Made by a program: the position numbers and the translations under genes. The notes under the pieces were generated by a model. The model was not told where the DNA came from. It saw only the letters and a program-made list of their open reading frames with translations, and searched no databases. Positions 93-7,811 of a DNA stretch of 64,000 nucleotides are shown piece after piece (within the stretch, counting starts at the first letter, position 1; every line of letters begins with the position of its first letter). This DNA comes from an uncultured Gemmatimonadales bacterium (GTDB lineage Bacteria; Gemmatimonadota; Gemmatimonadetes; Longimicrobiales; RSA9). The stretch covers positions 928,001 to 992,000 of the forward strand of contig CAWCRS010000007.1 in assembly GCA_963798085.1 (NCBI GenBank), given 5' to 3'.

Positions 93-154
93 TTGTATCA
101 TCGCCCTTGACACAAAAAGGGCCTGTCTTTATTGTGTCAGTTGGCTCGATACAA
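93..154. promoter_or_regulatory. two YtrA/GntR-type operator palindromes
   Basis: TTGTATCA-N7-TGACACAA (93-115) covers the -35; TTGTGTCA-N7-CGATACAA (132-154) covers the -10/+1; the TGTA-N13-TACA geometry matches YtrA-subfamily sites. Confidence 0.7.
107..135 (+). promoter_or_regulatory. sigma70-type promoter of the ClpN-GntR gene
   Basis: TTGACA (107-112), 17-bp spacer, TATTGT (130-135); RBS AAGGAG at 153-158 before GTG 164. Confidence 0.8.
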
Positions 155-163
155 GGAGACAAC

Positions 164-1090
164 GTGAAGGCCTACAACTTCACCGATACCGTGCGGCGCG
201 CGCTCGCCCTCGCCCGCGAAGAGTCCAGCAAGCTGCAGCACGACTTTGTCGGCACGGAGCACGTGCTGCTCGGACTCCTGGACCTGGGCACTGACCCGGC
301 CATCCTGATCCTGGAACAGTGCGGCGGAAATCCGGCAGGAATCCGGGTCCAGGTGCTGGAATCGATCCGGAAAGGAAGGAGCACCATCGCATTGGCCGAG
401 CTGCCCTACACGTCTCGCGCAAAGCGAGCGCTGGAATTCACAATGGAAGCTGCGGCAGAGCTGCGCGACGCGTATGTGGGTACGGAGCATCTGCTGCTCG
501 GTCTGATCCGGGAAGAGAAGGGAGTCGCCGCGCAGGTGCTCGCGCATCAGGGCGTCACTGCGCAGGCCGTGCTCGACCGCATCAGGAAACGTCACCGGGC
601 GGAGGCGGCCGCGGCGAGTGAGGGCACGGCCGAAGTTGCGGTCCAGGGCACACCAGTAGCGCGTGCAGCCGCGGACAATGTGTGGTTCCTCGAGATCGAC
701 ACCACATCCGGCGGCGCCATCTACGAACAGATCATTGCGCGCATCGAGGAAGCCGTGGCCACGGGGCGGCTGCAGCCCGGTGAGCGTCTGCCGCCCGTGC
801 GCGATCTCGCCGCGGAGCTGGGTGTCGCGCCGGGCACCGTGGCGCGTGCCTATACCGCACTGGAGAAGCGCAGTGTGCTGGAGACCGACGGCGCGCGTGG
901 CACCCGTGTGGCGGAGCGCACGGCACCGGCCCAGGCGGGTGTGCATCAGAGCCGGCTGGCGGAACTAATGCGCCCCGTGGTGGTGGCCGGCTTTCACCTC
1001 GGCGCCGCCGCTACCCAGCTGCGTGCCGCGCTGGAGCAGGCCATGCGCGACATCTTCCGCCGGGAAGGCGACGACGCGGACAAACAGTGA
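164..1090 (+). CDS. Clp N-terminal (Clp repeat) domain fused to GntR/YtrA-family winged-HTH regulator
   Basis: Two Clp repeats (FTDTVRRAL..VGTEHVLLGL; YTSRAKRAL..VGTEHLLLGL), then a GntR HTH (IYEQII..LQPGERLPPVRDLAAELGVAPGTVARAY) and a short YtrA-like C-terminal helix; no AAA+ domain; GTG start after AAGGAG. Confidence 0.85.
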   Translation: MKAYNFTDTVRRALALAREESSKLQHDFVGTEHVLLGLLDLGTDPAILILEQCGGNPAGIRVQVLESIRKGRSTIALAELPYTSRAKRALEFTMEAAAELRDAYVGTEHLLLGLIREEKGVAAQVLAHQGVTAQAVLDRIRKRHRAEAAAASEGTAEVAVQGTPVARAAADNVWFLEIDTTSGGAIYEQIIARIEEAVATGRLQPGERLPPVRDLAAELGVAPGTVARAYTALEKRSVLETDGARGTRVAERTAPAQAGVHQSRLAELMRPVVVAGFHLGAAATQLRAALEQAMRDIFRREGDDADKQ

Positions 1091-1091
1091 G

Positions 1092-1964
1092 TTATCCACC
1101 GCCCAGGCGCTGCAGCGTCTGCTGCACCCGCCGGTTGTTGGGCTGTATCTCGAGCGTCTTCCTGTAGTAGTCCACCGCCTTCGCCGTATCGCCCCTGGCG
1201 AGGTATGTATCGCCCAGCGACATGGTCACGGTGCCTTCCTGCGGATAGAACTCGTAGTCCAGCTCCAGCATGCGGATCGCTTCAGCCTGTTTGCCGTCTA
1301 CGCTGAGCGAGCGGCCCAGGTCGATCAGTGGGAGCGGACTGAAGTCGAACACGTCGCGTCCATAGTACTGCTGCCGCAGTGTGCGATACTTCGCCACGGC
1401 CGAGTCCATGCCCTGTTCCGCGATGACGCCGCTCAGCACGGCCTGCACGGTCTGCGGCCGGTTCTGTCCGTGATGACAGGTCTGGCACGACACGCTGACA
1501 GGATGCTCCGGGCGCTCCGGCAGGTCGGGCAGGATGGTGCCGTTGATCTGCTGCACCATCTTCAGCATGAAGCGCGCGCGCTTCTTCTCCACCTTGTCGT
1601 CGGACTTGTAGTCCATGCGGTTGCCGCCGAAGCCGCCTCGTCCACGCCCGCCGCCGCCTGCGCGCCCGGCGGTGTCCGGCGGCGGTGGCGCAGCGTTGCC
1701 GGCGGCGCGCACGTGGCAGTACTCGCAGCGCACACCGAGCGCGCCGGTGAAGCCGCGCATCACGGTTTCCAGGCTGTCGCGCGAGATGTCCTTGGGCAGG
1801 ACCTGAAGGTTCTCGAACTTGTCGGGCACGCCACCCTGTGCCTGCAGTGTGCCGCGTGCCAGCAGTGAACAGGTCAGCGCCACGCCCGCGACCGTGCCGC
1901 CACGCAGGACGGCGCCGGACCACACTAACAGCCAGTTCGAGATTCCGCTGCCACTCTGCCGCAT
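1092..1964 (-). CDS. diheme c-type cytochrome (reaction-centre cytochrome c-like family) with C-terminal TPR
   Basis: Signal peptide; NLQVLPKD..M..F..ALGV; CEYCH and CQTCH heme motifs; ARFMLKMV; TPR (SLGDTYLARGDTAKAVDYYRKTLEIQPNN). Confidence 0.8.
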   Translation of the reverse strand: MRQSGSGISNWLLVWSGAVLRGGTVAGVALTCSLLARGTLQAQGGVPDKFENLQVLPKDISRDSLETVMRGFTGALGVRCEYCHVRAAGNAAPPPPDTAGRAGGGGRGRGGFGGNRMDYKSDDKVEKKRARFMLKMVQQINGTILPDLPERPEHPVSVSCQTCHHGQNRPQTVQAVLSGVIAEQGMDSAVAKYRTLRQQYYGRDVFDFSPLPLIDLGRSLSVDGKQAEAIRMLELDYEFYPQEGTVTMSLGDTYLARGDTAKAVDYYRKTLEIQPNNRRVQQTLQRLGGG

Positions 1965-2155: not shown

Positions 2156-4710
2156 TCACCACTGGAAAGGCCAGCCCAGCCAGAACATGGGTGGTTCGCC
2201 AATGGGCGCGCCGGGCGGTGCCACCTGTGTGGCAGCAGGGGCGTACGGTGTTCCGGGCCGCGCCAGGAAACGCTGGATGTCGCGGCTCACGAGCGCGAAG
2301 TGCGCCGCGTTCGGGTCGTCCGCGCGGGCCACCGCGTTGCCCAGGTCTGCCGCCTTGCGCTGCAGCCGCAGTGTAGCCACCGCCCGCACCTGTGGCATGT
2401 CGGCCGTGCTCGCGAGGCGCATCAGCTCATCGATCGCGACGCGCTGCACGGCACGCGCGATCTCGGCCTCGTACGGCGAGGCGGGTGTCGCGTTGAACGT
2501 GGCCGTGAACACCTGGTCGATTACTTCCTCGAGGCCTGGAATGGATGGGTCGAGCGCGTGCTGCTCGACAATGCGGGCCGCGCGGTCCGGCTGGAAAATG
2601 TCGGAGAGCACGAGCTGCGCGACCGTGACCGCAGGCGAGATGGCATCGAAGCCATCGCCGGTGTACCGCGGAAACATCTCGCGATGCGCGCCGTAGCCCG
2701 GCGGTCGTGGTGGAATCAGCCCCAGCACGCTGGTGGGCAGAGCCAGCGCCGAAGGCTGCAGCGTCGCCATGAGTGCGGTGAGCGCCGCCTGCTGCTCGCT
2801 GCCGGATGCAGGGCGCACGGGCTCGCGTCCGTCGCCGCGCATCGCGTAGATGTAGTGCAGCCCGCCCATCGTGGACGCGGCCGCGTCGATCTGGTAGCGG
2901 TGATACAGGTAGAGTGGCACCAGCGCTTCCTCGATCGTGGCCATGGGCGCGCCGCGCTTGATCGCGTTTTCGCCGAAGCGCGCCAGTGCATTGCGCCGGA
3001 TGTCCATCATGCGGTACAGCTCGGCCGCTGCATCCGTGCCGTTGGACCACTGGTCCACTCTGGGGTTGGCGGCCATATCCTGGTTGGTCAGGTAGCGGAT
3101 GTCGCGCTGCCATGCGTTGTCGAGTATGCGGTTCAGCGCGGCGGGCTCATTCGTGCCCTTCGGGAAGTCCTGATAACCCCAGGTTATGGAAACACTGTCC
3201 CACTCGCCGATGCCCGACTCGTAGACCTGGCTGTAGTCGAGCGTGCCATCGCTCTTCAGCGTCACCAGGGGCTGCGGGTAATCCATCACTGAGATGCGGC
3301 CCGCCTCGCTGTCGTAGTAGTTGTGGCCCAGCCCCAGCGTGTGCCCCACCTCGTGCGCGGCCAGCTGGCGGATGCGCGCCAGCGCCCACTGTGTCAGCTC
3401 CGGCGGTGTCTCGTCGCCATTCTTGTAAGGGGAGAGCAGGCTTTCCGCGATCAGGTAGTCCTGGCGCGCGCGCAGCGAGCCCAGCTCCACCACGCCTTTG
3501 ATGATCTCGCCTGTGCGCGGATCATCGACTGAGCCGCCGAAGCTCCAGCCGCGTGTCGAGCGATGCACCCAGTTGATCACGTTGTAGCGCGCATCCAGCG
3601 GGCTGATGCTGTCGGGTCGCAGCTCCACACGGAACGCGTTGCGGTAGCCGGCCGCTTCGAAAGCCTGGTTCCACCAGCGCGCGCCCTCCAGCAGCGCCGA
3701 GCGGATGGGCTCGGGCGCACCCGGATCGAGGTAGTAGATGATGGGCTTCACCGGATCGCTGACGCGTGCGCTCGGGTCCACCTTCTTCAGCCGGTGCCGG
3801 TTCGTGAAGCGCTTCGTCAGCGGTTCGCTGAGCGGCGAGGCGAAGTCGTCGTACGAATGTCGCCGAACCCCGAGCGCGGATCGAACGGGCGAGGCGTGTA
3901 GTTGCTGTCGGGCAGTTCAATGAAGGAGTGGTGCACCCGCAGGCTTGCCGCTTCCGGCGAGGCCGCGACATTGCCCACGCCCTCGAAGTACCCGCCGCCA
4001 CCGCCACCGCCGCCCCCCCCACCGCCACCGACATTGCCGGCCGCCGCGGGCTGGCGCACATAGGTGAGTTCCGCTTCTAACTCCGTGTTCCTGGGGAAGA
4101 CCTTCGTCATGGGCATGAAGATGCTGCTGCGGCTCGCCTCCAGGCGGTAGCTGCCGGGGCGCAGCCGCTGCGCCAGGTTGCCATCGTCGCGCAGCACGAA
4201 ATCGGTCATGTCCACGAGCACGCGGCCGCCACTCTCGGCTGCCACCGTGAAGCCCCACAGCACGGAGCGAGCGAAGGCGTCGCGCACCGCTCTGACTTCT
4301 GCGGGGTTCGTGCTGGTGGCGCGGAAGTCGTAGTTGGGCTGCACCATCAGCACCTTGGGCCCCACGCGCTGGAAGAACACAATGCGCGAACCCAGCAGTG
4401 CGCCGCGGTCCAGCCCGATGTCGTTGGAGCCCAGACCAGCCGCCAGTCCCGTGATGTAGAGCACCTCCGTGTCGAGGTGTGGGATCTCCATCCAGAGCTT
4501 GCCGGCGCTCTCCTCCCAGTAAAGCGGGAAGAAACCGGCGAGCTTCGTCATGCCCGCAGTTTTCGCCTCGATCGTAGGCGTGCGCTGGCGTGCCGCGAGC
4601 GGTTGCGCCCCCGGCCATGCGACAGCGGCGAGGACGAGTGCGGTGAGAAGGGGGCGGCGTCGTCGCCAGAAACCGGCGCCGTGGAGAGCACGAAGCGCAT
4701 GCGCGCGCAT
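2156..4710 (-). CDS. secreted zinc-dependent metalloprotease (DUF5117/DUF4953, EcxA-like); one frameshift near 3855
   Basis: HEVGHTLGLGHN metzincin motif, SVMDY Met-turn, DPRTGEIIKG; the ORFs 3817-4836 and 2156-3781 join across one indel; GGAGG RBS before ATG 4710. Confidence 0.85.
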
Positions 4711-4896
4711 GACACACCTCCGAGGATGTTCGGGTAGCGATCCGGCGCAGTGTACGCACGCCCGCCTGACCCGGCCAGCCGGACCGGGATCAGGCGCCGT
4801 TTCCGAACGTGACTCGCTCGGAACGAGGGCCGTCACGCACGTTGCGGATGCGTTTTCCGGCCGTTTCTGTGGCGGGTCGGCCGATTTTGTCCGGCG

Positions 4897-7374
4897 CTAT
4901 TTCGGATTGAGGACCTGCGGGGGGCTCTCAGCCGCGAGCTTCATGATCCGCTGGACCTCTCGCTCGTTGTCCCGCATTCGCGGCGGCGCCGCGGGCGAAG
5001 CCGGTGCAGCGGGACTGGCCGCCGCCACAACAACCGGAGAACGCGCGGCGGCACTGTCTTCCGCGGACAGCAATGGCAGCTCTTCAATGACAGGCATCAG
5101 GTAGGGTCTTGCTGGCGGTTTCCTCGGGCGGTCGGAATGCGCCGTCGGTGTGACGAGCTGCGCTGCCGTCGTGCGCCCCGCATTGATCGGTATGGCGGCG
5201 GCCGGCGCCAGCTCCGGGCGCAACGTCAGGGGCGCCGATTTCGCCACCGCCGCCGCTATCGCGGCAGCCGTTTCCTGCACATGGGGATGCAGGACGTCGC
5301 CGCGCGACTGGACTGGAGCTGCGAGGGCCGTCAATGCGTCTGCGAGCACCGTGTCGGATGTCTTGACCGCAGTCCGGCTCTCTGCCGAAGCGGGCGTGGG
5401 TGCCGTCGCAACGTGACGATCGGGTGCGCGGGCTGCACGCGCCGGCGCGATGGGATCGCGCTTCTGCCGGCCAGCGTGTATGGCGAGAGCGTCGTGTTTT
5501 CTGATCGAAACGCAGGCGTGATGCAGATGTCCCGCATCATCAGCGAATGCGACATGCGTCGCGTGTTCCGCACAACCCACGATGGGATCGCTCGCCAGTT
5601 CGAGTGTGCCGGACGAGCGGCGTTCCTGACTCACGTTCTCGCTGCTCCAGTCCCCGACCGGCGTCCAGCGGAAGAGAAGCAGGTTCTTCGACTGGCGCGC
5701 GAAGATGTGCAGGCTCCCGGCAGGGCCGGTTGCGATGACCGGAGCGCCCTCGATCCTGCCACCACTGCGAGCGGACATCTGCGCACGTATGACCGTTTCG
5801 CCGCCCGCCGCGCCATTCCGGCCGTACCAGAGGTGGATCAATCCACCCTCGGCCTCCCGGGCCGCGACGTGCACGGTGCCTTCGTCGTCGATGAGAGCGG
5901 ATAACCTGGAGACCGCAACAACGGGCTGGTCGTCCGTCGGAAAAGCGGCGCTGGTCAGGTCGATTCCCTTGCTGACCTGGTCCTCCGTCAGGCGAAACAG
6001 AAGCACCCTGCCGTCGTGCGACCGTATGACGGCGTTCAGCGCCCTGCCCGCCGCGTCGTACAGCGCGATGGGATCATCAGCCGCAGTAACGCGCTTTCCT
6101 CCAGCCAGGCGATCGCCGAGGTTCGATGCCATCCAGCCGTTCTTGTGATGCTCGCGCAGGTGCACGATGTCGCCGGCATCGGTACGACAGAACACATGGA
6201 GTTCGGCCCGCTCGACGAGTGCCGGTGTGCCCACGAAATTCGCCCTGCCGGCACTTCCTGCGTTTACGAGATCCGCTTTCCAGCGGCCCAGCGCGTTGCA
6301 TCGGTAGCGTACCAGCTGTCCGCGTCCGCAGCCCATCACGATGATCCCGGCGCGACCGGCGAGGACCGCCAGGTTGCTGTCGACGCGAAAGGCATCACCA
6401 ATGCGGCGCGATTGTGTGATGTTGCGCGCCCGCCAGCCGAGGACCGGAATACGGCGGACTTCCAGCACATCGCCGTTCGCTGAACGCGCCAGGATGCGTC
6501 GCGGCGCCACCAGGGTGACTCCACCTGCATCCGGCACCAGCGCTGTGCGTGCCGCCTTCTGCACGTCTTCCACCGACCACCGCTGCCGGCCGTCCCGTCG
6601 GACCTTCAACAGCCCGCCGCCTGTGTGCGCCGCGGCGAGCATGTCGACTGCACCGTCCGCCGCATCGGTTCCGAGCACGGACACGACAGCCCCGATCGGG
6701 AGCGTGTCGATGTCATCGGCCCTGTCCAGCGACAGCGCGGCCGGCTCGGCGCGATCGTATCGCACCATGAAGAAGGCACGGACCCGCTGTTCGCCCTCGA
6801 AACGCGCGTCCAGCGGACCGTAGCGGCCGGTTGAGAAGACCAGTCGCAGGTTGTCCTTCCCGGGCTGATCCGGATCGTAAACCAGAAGCGTTGCGCGCCG
6901 CGCACTGCGGTCGACGTCGTAACCCACCGCGAGGACCGCCTTGTTCGACGAAGGATTGGCGTGGCGTCCACTGGCGAGTACCAGGAAGAGCATCACTGGA
7001 GTGCCCGCGTCGAGGCTTCGTCGCGCCAGGCGCCAGTGTACGCGACTGCAGACTGTCAGGCTGGGACGACCTGGCAGTCCACGCTCGGGCAGGGATTGCC
7101 ATTCGACGAGTTGACTCCAGGGCGCCACGGCCAGCGCGTTCGCCTGCCGCATCACGAGTTCCTGATAGAGCGGATCCGCCGGCGCGGGTGGCTCGGCTGC
7201 GGTGGGTACTGGCCGGTCCGCCAGGTATCGATCGAGCGCGACCCAGGCCATCCCGGCGCCCAGCCCGAAGGAGGGCAGCATGGGTGCGCCCAGCCCGAAG
7301 GCAGTGCCGGGCACGCTGAACGCGTTCGGAAAACGGAAACCATTGACGGAGGGTCGGAATGCGTGTTTCGGCAT
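4897..7374 (-). CDS. hypothetical protein: papain-like peptidase-fold N-domain (degenerate), beta-propeller/lectin-like repeats, Ala/Pro-rich tail
   Basis: FRPSVNGFRFPN, GLGAGMA, NKAVLAVGYD, LLVYDPD pattern; repeated (L/V)HVF/AR..G.L.H..W...NL blades. Confidence 0.6.
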   Translation of the reverse strand: MPKHAFRPSVNGFRFPNAFSVPGTAFGLGAPMLPSFGLGAGMAWVALDRYLADRPVPTAAEPPAPADPLYQELVMRQANALAVAPWSQLVEWQSLPERGLPGRPSLTVCSRVHWRLARRSLDAGTPVMLFLVLASGRHANPSSNKAVLAVGYDVDRSARRATLLVYDPDQPGKDNLRLVFSTGRYGPLDARFEGEQRVRAFFMVRYDRAEPAALSLDRADDIDTLPIGAVVSVLGTDAADGAVDMLAAAHTGGGLLKVRRDGRQRWSVEDVQKAARTALVPDAGGVTLVAPRRILARSANGDVLEVRRIPVLGWRARNITQSRRIGDAFRVDSNLAVLAGRAGIIVMGCGRGQLVRYRCNALGRWKADLVNAGSAGRANFVGTPALVERAELHVFCRTDAGDIVHLREHHKNGWMASNLGDRLAGGKRVTAADDPIALYDAAGRALNAVIRSHDGRVLLFRLTEDQVSKGIDLTSAAFPTDDQPVVAVSRLSALIDDEGTVHVAAREAEGGLIHLWYGRNGAAGGETVIRAQMSARSGGRIEGAPVIATGPAGSLHIFARQSKNLLLFRWTPVGDWSSENVSQERRSSGTLELASDPIVGCAEHATHVAFADDAGHLHHACVSIRKHDALAIHAGRQKRDPIAPARAARAPDRHVATAPTPASAESRTAVKTSDTVLADALTALAAPVQSRGDVLHPHVQETAAAIAAAVAKSAPLTLRPELAPAAAIPINAGRTTAAQLVTPTAHSDRPRKPPARPYLMPVIEELPLLSAEDSAAARSPVVVAAASPAAPASPAAPPRMRDNEREVQRIMKLAAESPPQVLNPK

Positions 7375-7739: not shown

Positions 7740-7811
7740 GGCTGGGTAGCTCAATGGTAGAGCAGCGGAGTCATAATCCGTAGGTTGGGGGTTCGAGTCC
7801 CTCCCCAGCTA
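7740..7811 (+). tRNA. tRNA-Met(CAT), probably elongator (Ile2 not excluded); CCA not encoded
   Basis: Cloverleaf: acceptor GGCTGGG/CCCAGCT, D arm GCTC..GAGC, anticodon stem GCGGA/TCCGT with CAT at 7772-7774, T arm GGGGG-TTCGAGT-CCCTC; lacks the initiator GGG/CCC pairs. Confidence 0.9.

Follow-up and report, generated by a model that had tools for sequence, protein, structure and literature searches.

What does a protein do that carries the N-terminal double repeat of ClpC (ClpN) on a transcriptional repressor and has no AAA+ module? Such a gene lies at the left end of the window, the 64,000-nucleotide stretch of DNA analysed here, and the first-pass annotation had read it as an autorepressed counterpart of ClpC2 that senses phospho-arginine (pArg) or other ligands of ClpC.

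A ClpN double repeat joined to a YtrA-type GntR domain

The fusion gene encodes 308 amino acids between a GTG at 164 and position 1090 on the plus strand. A TTG at 107 (327 amino acids) was rejected as the start; it lies within the −35 element, and both the homologs and the Shine-Dalgarno sequence favor the GTG. The gene has the following features:

154–158, plus strand: Shine-Dalgarno sequence AGGAG, preceding the GTG at 164 (sequence)
164–1090, plus strand: ClpN-YtrA(GntR) fusion gene (open reading frame, Pfam, homologs, AF2 model)
173–598, plus strand: ClpC-type N-terminal double repeat, residues 4–145 (identity to host ClpC, structure overlay)
182–190, plus strand: pArg1 half-site T7-D8-T9, with Arg replaced by Thr; the partners T107/E108 (482–487) are kept
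254–259, plus strand: pArg2 half-site T31-E32; the partners T83 (410–412) and R85 (416–418) are intact
407–447, plus strand: helix-5 side of the putative ligand groove, Y82, K87, L90, E91, and M94 (conservation)
599–682, plus strand: variable Ala/Gly/Pro-rich linker (alignment, AF2 model)
683–913, plus strand: GntR winged helix-turn-helix with the invariant APGTVARAY (Pfam, alignment)
935–1081, plus strand: YtrA-type two-helix dimerization domain (R270, H278), unusually conserved (model, family conservation)

Pfam recognizes two Clp_N repeats (E 2.4e-26) and a GntR domain (PF00392, E 2.1e-15) in the protein and no other domain. The AF2 model (mean pLDDT 89, pTM 0.56) places an eight-helix ClpN first, followed by a disordered linker (residues 159–173), a winged helix, and two C-terminal helices (258–278 and 283–306). 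In Foldseek searches, the ClpN part superposes on ClpC N-terminal domains (NTDs) at 1–2 Å, including the pArg-bound structure 5hbn, and the best solved structures for the GntR part are of the YtrA type (Lmo2241, 4ham; 3by6; 6sbs), with full-domain matches to 4ham and 2du9. The best NCBIfam match is the Rv1152 family, under its cut-off, and a complex prediction of ClpN on the GntR dimer scored 0.01, which speaks neither for nor against a contact. Hence, the architecture proposed from the sequence, a ClpN double repeat with a YtrA-type GntR domain and no AAA+ module, is borne out by Pfam, the model, and the structure matches. The motifs named there are likewise correct at their residues: FTDT in place of FTxR at 6–9, GTEH at 30–33 and again at 106–109, and YTSRAK at 82–87. 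The loss of FTxR is atypical for ClpC of this lineage, where the arginine is kept in 24 of 24 controls.

A patchy family, mostly of Gemmatimonadota

An assembly error, or two separate genes read as one, is ruled out by at least 115 homologs and at least 39 genome loci. Among the matches listed (120, query included), 116 have the ClpN+GntR architecture and the remaining 4 are poly-ClpN proteins; most of the listed homologs are 46–57% identical to the query. Both domains, with ClpN always first, are also present in 46 of 149 further representatives at the 50% level, and a genome scan returned at least 80 loci, of which at least 39 carry at least 40 fusion open reading frames. The fusion loci among the matches listed are labeled Gemmatimonadota (37), "bacterium" (1), and Myxococcota (1). 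Of 301 genomes sampled evenly across the host phylum, 7 have a full-length match, and a search with the GntR part adds an eighth, G249, whose ClpN is degenerate; both counts include G157, whose locus was left out elsewhere as a duplicate sequence and whose gene may enter other tallies once, via its duplicate. The taxonomic search that the first-pass annotation had called for thus confirms the family and shows a patchy range (8 of 301), mostly Gemmatimonadota among the matches listed. With ClpC present in nearly all of these genomes and the fusion in so few, the fusion gene is dispensable.

Full-length copies were absent from viral contigs, where the one match is a stand-alone Streptomyces-type GntR, and none of the matching records from plasmids (0 of 1623) or phages (0 of 34) reaches 80% query coverage. 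PADLOC profiles assign the protein to 0 families. Among sequencing runs, no RNA run is listed as containing this DNA, and a single DNA run is listed with a small share. The ESM Atlas holds a 196-member cluster for the Clp_N/GntR pairing under an automatic name, and NCBI and JGI labels are generic. Full-text searches of the openly accessible literature, judged on titles and the beginnings of abstracts, returned no paper on a Clp_N-GntR fusion; a 2023 paper in Cell reportedly deals with ClpC2/ClpC3. "Clp" is absent from the accessible main text of a GntR motif survey (PMC4494728) and of a domain-architecture survey (PMC5882156), as are ClpN and ClpC from the accessible text of PMC11237479. The ClpN-YtrA fusion thus apparently constitutes a real and undescribed family.

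Several relatives depart from this layout. Longer members of this GntR clade were looked for and not found, which is weak evidence for the absence of AAA+ modules. P0122, P0124, P0130, and P0154 are ATPase-less poly-ClpN proteins of up to 1762 amino acids with no other Pfam domain; in P0180, P0248, and P0188, ClpN is joined to a bifunctional nuclease, a Roadblock/LC7, or a UVR domain. P0032 (371 amino acids) combines two ClpNs, one near-identical to the ClpC NTD, with the C-terminal hairpin of the family and lacks the winged helix; it could act as a DNA-blind partner or purely as a sponge. L142:1875 (minus strand) and L151, from a different class of the phylum, encode a GntR domain with what reads in translation as a periplasmic-binding-like domain, with a similar palindrome upstream.

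Predicted tandem operators over the gene's own promoter

Which genes would such a repressor control? Upstream of the fusion gene, two predicted operators bracket a promoter:

93–115, unstranded: operator 1, palindrome TTGTATCA-N7-TGACACAA, including the −35 hexamer (matrix 30.8, top in the host genome)
107–135, plus strand: sigma70-type promoter, TTGACA at 107–112, 17 nt, TATTGT at 130–135 (10/12 matches)
132–154, unstranded: operator 2, palindrome spanning the −10 element and start site (matrix 25.1, second in the genome)

The promoter compares with a mean of 0.2 in shuffles, and the two palindromes are the only strict matches in the 6.23-Mb host genome, which is 90% complete. With a matrix trained on 40 homolog promoters, leaving out the query's own locus, duplicates, and the truncated L033, the third-best site in that genome scores 15.5, far below the pair listed above. 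Site 1 is kept in 37 of the 40 homolog promoters and both sites in 36, the second lying 34–41 nt further on, with the same spacing in 18 and one base shorter in 18 (n = 36); TTGACA holds the same position in 34 of 40. The family consensus is TTGTATCA-N7-TGATACAA, in which TGT-N15-ACA is conserved. The three promoters without site 1 include that of the second gene of a tandem pair (L005) and that of L044, which has a strong site of different form. The G249 locus, which was outside the training set, carries both sites. A terminator-like hairpin at 103–122 was dismissed as being at chance level and overlapping the promoter.

Three Streptomyces loci (L054, L061, and L075, ~5080–6380) that carry membrane-protein and YtrA operons have tandem sites nearly identical to those of the fusion, with the same half-sites set closer by one base, in front of the membrane-protein gene and the YtrA regulator; one copy is in a viral contig (L115). 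Their presence there argues that the motif and this GntR clade are cognate, and suggests that the promoter module arrived with the GntR part.

No second target promoter was found by matrix or pattern across six carrier genomes, a search in which second sites one base shorter score poorly with the matrix and weak or differently spaced operators could escape. In the five carriers other than the host, the pattern returned the own promoter and two one-mismatch strays, as against 4–10 matches each for a reversed-pattern control. Since no other strong sites appear, the regulon looks like the fusion gene itself. We consider it highly probable, from domain type and operator pattern, that the protein binds its own operators as a dimer and represses its own gene.

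Nor does the protease operon appear to be a target. The host encodes mcsA-mcsB-clpC at G000:C7:1603521-1607630, separated by a 7-nt gap from the preceding lolE-lolD and without ctsR, and the same operon likewise follows lolE-lolD in all 3 further carriers that were checked. Host McsB has the NEEDH and CPTN motifs, and CtsR (PF05848) gave no match in the 90%-complete genome, with positive controls; the look for mcsB and ctsR advised by the first-pass annotation therefore yields McsA, McsB, and ClpC and no CtsR match. Upstream of mcsA, clpB, and prfB in the host no operator was found, matrix scores being negative, and none is present at 23 clpC loci of ~3.4 kb each (0/23), so that control of the clpC operon or of a wider regulon was discarded. 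The missing CtsR match and the mcs-clpC operon placed directly after lolE-lolD might invite the view that the fusion substitutes for CtsR and regulates distal heat-shock genes via weak sites. The negative scores and empty clpC loci, together with the 293 of 301 genomes that show no fusion, nearly all with ClpC, make this extremely unlikely.

A solitary gene

The downstream side of the gene is closed by its neighbor:

1092–1964, minus strand: cytochrome c/TPR gene, convergent, outside the system (neighbor in the window; not common to homolog loci)

A single nucleotide separates the stops of the two genes, and this convergence implies that the fusion gene is monocistronic. The upstream neighbor is divergent, starts ~610 nt from the fusion, and has the look of a SusC-type receptor in translation. 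Neighbors at 38 loci were scanned (119 genes, up to two per side, first 350 amino acids of each). The next gene is convergent at 19 loci, co-oriented within 150 nt at 8, co-oriented at a greater distance at 6, and uncalled at 5; no ABC ATPase was found among adjacent co-oriented genes of the 38 loci, nor any general partner gene family among their neighbors. The description of a gene standing alone, converging on a cytochrome gene, and lacking an ABC transporter thus holds for the window and across the family. At L005:5015-6897, two fusion genes stand in tandem behind one operator pair. At L026:2011-2493 and L031:5643-6140, a stand-alone ClpN gene follows 25–34 nt behind the fusion as the sole downstream co-oriented gene; both of its pArg pockets are gone, and the LPF..K..IE groove motif is retained.

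Further along the window, a DUF5118/DUF5117/Met-zincin gene (2156–4836, minus strand) is split into two frames near 3850, apparently through a frameshift of one base or an error in sequencing. The next protein (4897–7374, minus strand; 825 amino acids) has a weak DUF346 repeat match only and a long Ala/Pro-rich tail, and a tRNA-Met(CAT) at 7740–7811 (plus strand) adjoins a methyltransferase gene and is a possible integration site.

ClpN derived from the ClpC of the phylum

The Clp_N proteins of the host are ClpC, ClpB, and the fusion only. The fusion ClpN shares 57–60% identity with the NTD of host ClpC (60% over 129 amino acids) and 26% with that of ClpB, and in FastTree or quick IQ-TREE trees, fusion ClpNs fall among or beside the ClpC NTDs of Gemmatimonadota. 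As judged from identity and trees, the fusion ClpN is derived from Gemmatimonadota ClpC. This phylogeny answers the question of origin posed in the first-pass annotation, and comparative genomics supports its proposal of an assembly independent of ClpC2, with reversed domain order and a different DNA-binding family.

This part diverges quickly: mean pairwise identity is 41% for the fusion ClpN, as against 65% for the winged helix, 63% for the C-terminal helices, and 87% for ClpC NTDs. Identity to ClpC falls as low as 28% in some members, so that not all members would serve as a faithful ClpC decoy. One ClpC type draws four fusions into its group (SH-aLRT 93), and these bear 4–6 of its 11 diagnostic residues, whereas the query has 7 diagnostic residues of the other type and none of the first; a single fusion clade is nevertheless not rejected in a test with 14 selected fusions (p-AU 0.055). 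In one carrier (G182), the fusion and ClpC types are mismatched. Recent gene conversion from clpC found no support at synonymous sites, where the identity of a fusion to its own clpC is not above that to other clpCs.

Repeated capture would suit a decoy obliged to track its model, and both the two-type grouping and the near-copy of a ClpC NTD in P0032 hint at it. The fusion could then be an "integrated decoy" guard whose sensor was re-copied from host clpC more than once, tracking the attackers of its lineage's ClpC, and then diversified, a reading that we put forward as rather unlikely. Candidate attackers would be soil peptides or phage adaptor proteins. An 88-member ESM Atlas cluster, mostly of Cyanobacteriota (~297 amino acids, score 0.77), joins Clp_N to an ArsR-type HTH_20/HTH_5 domain and is possibly another independent ClpN-repressor fusion. 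If the guard reading were true, at least three independent sensor-repressors would have been built on the ClpC NTD: the present fusion, ClpC2, and the cyanobacteria-dominated Clp_N+ArsR proteins.

A constant groove beside variable pArg pockets

To compare candidate ligand surfaces, 203 fusions were reduced to 187 by dropping those more than 90% alike, and 178 of these could be scored at eight positions. T81/R83 presumably pair with T31/E32 in the pArg2 pocket. Pocket assignment follows the accessible text of PMC12583610 together with repeat symmetry: E32 belongs to pArg2, and E106, T7, and R9 belong to pArg1. As described there, R9 bridges to the M-domain in ClpC, K85 contacts AAA1, and every cyclic peptide touches K85 of ClpC.

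At least one pArg pocket is intact in 149 of 178 family members: both in 58, pArg2 only in 78 (the class of the query, with T31/E32/T83/R85), and pArg1 only in 13, leaving 29 with neither. Both pockets are kept in 24 of 24 ClpC controls, and neither in 21 of 46 members of a divergent set. On a tree built without the scored columns, R9 (kept in 79/180, lost in 101/180) has changed at least 26 times and R85 (kept in 155/187) at least 22 times; 177 of 186 fusions retain E32. The helix-1/helix-5 groove, to which helix 1 contributes R11, L14, and R18, is in contrast the best-kept ClpN surface across the family: K/R87 is kept in 184/187 (3 changes), an aromatic residue at 82 in 182/187 (5), and R/K11 in 173/180 (6), and groove residues are ~90% kept even among fusions lacking both pArg pockets. 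Part of this conservation (L14, L90, Y82) may be structural. K87 and R11, however, are not needed for the fold, since host ClpB has N at 87 and A at 11. Pocket turnover beside a constant groove suggests that pArg2 is favored but dispensable.

These data bear directly on whether the protein is a phospho-arginine sensor proper, in which McsB-marked proteins would bind pArg2 and lift repression with the groove secondary. The host McsB with its motifs, the intact pArg2 pocket of the query, the excess of pArg2-only over pArg1-only members, and the retention of E32 all fit this idea, and one pocket suffices in ClpC2 according to the accessible literature. Yet 29 of 178 members lack both pockets and still keep the groove and the DNA-binding domain, 21 of 46 members of the divergent set have neither pocket, and R85 has changed nearly as often as R9, as against three times for K87. 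We therefore consider it improbable. Of the earlier proposal of pArg sensing, the intact pArg2 pocket and the McsB of the host speak for a contribution; pArg as the main signal is disfavored, the pArg1 arginine being absent and both pockets being lost in part of the family.

Cyclomarin, a second ligand proposed at the outset, has lost ground. The accessible text of PMC10030653 gives F2, F80, and E89 as its contacts in ClpC2, and their equivalents in the fusion are A3, Y82, and E91; host-type ClpC also has Tyr at the F80-equivalent position (24/24). Because F80Y lowers cyclomarin binding ~10-fold, as reported in the accessible part of a preprint (10.64898/2026.06.30.735635), cyclomarin itself is an unlikely ligand; Tyr4 might partly compensate.

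Might ClpN instead be a passenger, captured by a self-silencing YtrA repressor that has lost its operon and now merely oligomerizing or decaying? The gene is patchy and its ClpN diverges fast, ClpNs at L041 and G249 are degenerate, one copy (L039) is frameshifted, and there are a few short relatives with GntR alone, mostly from short contigs. The fusion is nevertheless kept across two orders with reading frames intact, the surface charges R11, R18, K87, and E91 are held without structural need, and the promoter architecture is conserved over ~40–60% protein identity, which leaves this explanation with very little likelihood.

A proposed model of ligand-relieved autorepression

Own-promoter operators, the lack of another target in six genomes, and the presence of McsA, McsB, and ClpC in the host together sustain the ClpC2-like autorepressed sensor of the first-pass annotation as the best model, with its emphasis on pArg as the main signal removed. 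We thus moderately favor, by analogy with ClpC2, a sensor and decoy for ligands of the ClpC NTD, with the groove as primary and pArg2 as secondary site. In the ground state, the YtrA-type domain would dimerize via its C-terminal helices and bind both palindromes over the −35 and −10 elements, keeping the gene off. ClpN would bind ligands that otherwise dock on ClpC, chiefly in the helix-1/helix-5 groove, where unfolded polypeptide, adaptors, foreign peptides, or phage antagonists are candidates, with the pArg2 pocket assisting in most members.

Ligand may then lower occupancy of the tandem operators, either by breaking ClpN contacts between the two dimers or by multivalent sequestration; these are the simplest options because the flexible linker offers no fixed allosteric path. 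The output would be more of the fusion protein, an ATPase-less sponge titrating ligands off ClpCP, and repression would reset when ligands fall. That ligand binding to ClpN lifts repression and that the protein itself is the output sponge is, on the same analogy, a fair rather than a strong expectation. As background, the accessible text of the ClpC2 preprint (10.64898/2026.06.30.735635) reports that tandem operators are bound ~24-fold tighter than single ones and that ClpC2 leaves its operator on pArg-casein or peptides, which it also sequesters.

ClpN could alternatively serve as a docking handle, bound by McsA/McsB or ClpC so that the repressor is sequestered or degraded, with the induced protein tuning ClpC by occupying its NTD-binding partners. 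The YtrA-family protein MbrR is controlled by protein sequestration, an ABC ATPase being the sequestering partner, and not by a small molecule, as stated in the accessible part of 10.64898/2026.02.18.706565, and such switching also fits a YtrA domain with a protein-binding module as its input. In keeping with docking, ClpC makes protein contacts through K85 and through the pArg pockets (PMC12583610, accessible text), and the fusion lacks the membrane-protein partner found with its closest YtrA relatives. Host ClpC, however, as read from its translation, keeps only part of the acidic AAA1 site that pairs with K85, and the fusion stands beside mcsA-mcsB-clpC in 0 of 38 loci; we regard docking as quite unlikely.

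Under the preferred sensor and decoy model, the standard GntR domain and clear predicted operator would make the gene and its 60-bp promoter a ready-made reporter. It could show what occupies the ClpC NTD (pArg proteins, adaptors, peptides, or phage proteins) and whether arginine phosphorylation feeds into transcriptional control in bacteria other than Gram-positives.

Comparison with known systems

Plant ClpT1/2 act as protease assembly factors. They and other stand-alone ClpNs share the ATPase-less double Clp-N fold with the fusion (matches to 4y0b and 4y0c) but have no DNA-binding domain. A CtsR-type class III repressor controls mcsA-mcsB-clpC, whereas no fusion operator lies upstream of mcsA or clpB. 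The NTDs of B. subtilis, S. aureus, and host ClpC have the same fold as the fusion ClpN (TM ~0.9 on target), the GTEH motifs, and the groove residues. Unlike ClpC, the fusion has no AAA+ module or M-domain, and so no AAA1 for K87 to contact; 101 of 180 fusions have lost the pArg1 arginine, which in ClpC contacts the M-domain, and ClpN evolves much faster.

With the YtrA subfamily (B. subtilis YtrA, S. salivarius MbrR, Sulfolobus YtrA, and the membrane-protein-linked YtrA of Streptomyces), the fusion shares the winged helix, a short (~50-amino acid) two-helix C-terminal domain, and a long predicted palindrome with GT/AC far from its center. It differs in its extra N-terminal ClpN of 145 amino acids, where GntR proteins normally start with the DNA-binding domain, in having no ABC or membrane-protein operon (38 loci), and in its unusually conserved C-terminal helices. 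Double sites are the rule in the fusion family but rare in YtrA regulons according to the accessible text of PMC4494728. By domain and predicted operator, the protein is YtrA-type, minus the operon and plus an N-terminal addition.

The closest functional parallel is ClpC2, as described in the accessible parts of Taylor et al. 2023 (PMC10030653) and of a preprint (10.64898/2026.06.30.735635). Both proteins place an ATPase-less copy of the ClpC NTD inside a small repressor, with tandem palindromes over its own −35/−10 and itself as the only evident target, and in both one pArg pocket is often relaxed. ClpC2 has a four-helix module followed by ClpN, whereas the fusion has ClpN followed by GntR; the "HTH" label given to the ClpC2 module earlier is weakened, as PMC10030653, in its accessible text, describes a four-helix dimerization bundle and does not name it HTH. 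The fusion would contact DNA through its GntR winged helix, whereas in ClpC2 the ClpN part is proposed for this (PMC10030653), and the operators differ (TGTAYCA-N7-TGACACA versus CGTCAAC-n5-GTTGACG in the accessible ClpC2 literature).

ClpC2 structures match the ClpN part of the fusion only, at 26–28% identity, and the fusion's ClpN, unlike that of ClpC2, stems from Gemmatimonadota ClpC. The dimer contact of ClpC2 runs through an acidic helix-8 tip. The fusion family prefers pArg2, whereas T100/T197 of ClpC2, going by offset and the accessible text, would map to pArg1; in the fusion, A and Y stand in place of the cyclomarin residues F2 and F80; and its host, unlike those of ClpC2, is diderm and has a known arginine kinase. 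By domain order, DNA-binding module, predicted operator, and cyclomarin residues, the fusion is not a member of ClpC2. If the model is true, the ClpC2 circuit, in which a piece of the protease receptor represses its own gene, would be a convergent design rather than an actinobacterial oddity, extending to an outer-membrane phylum whose McsA-McsB-ClpC has no CtsR match.
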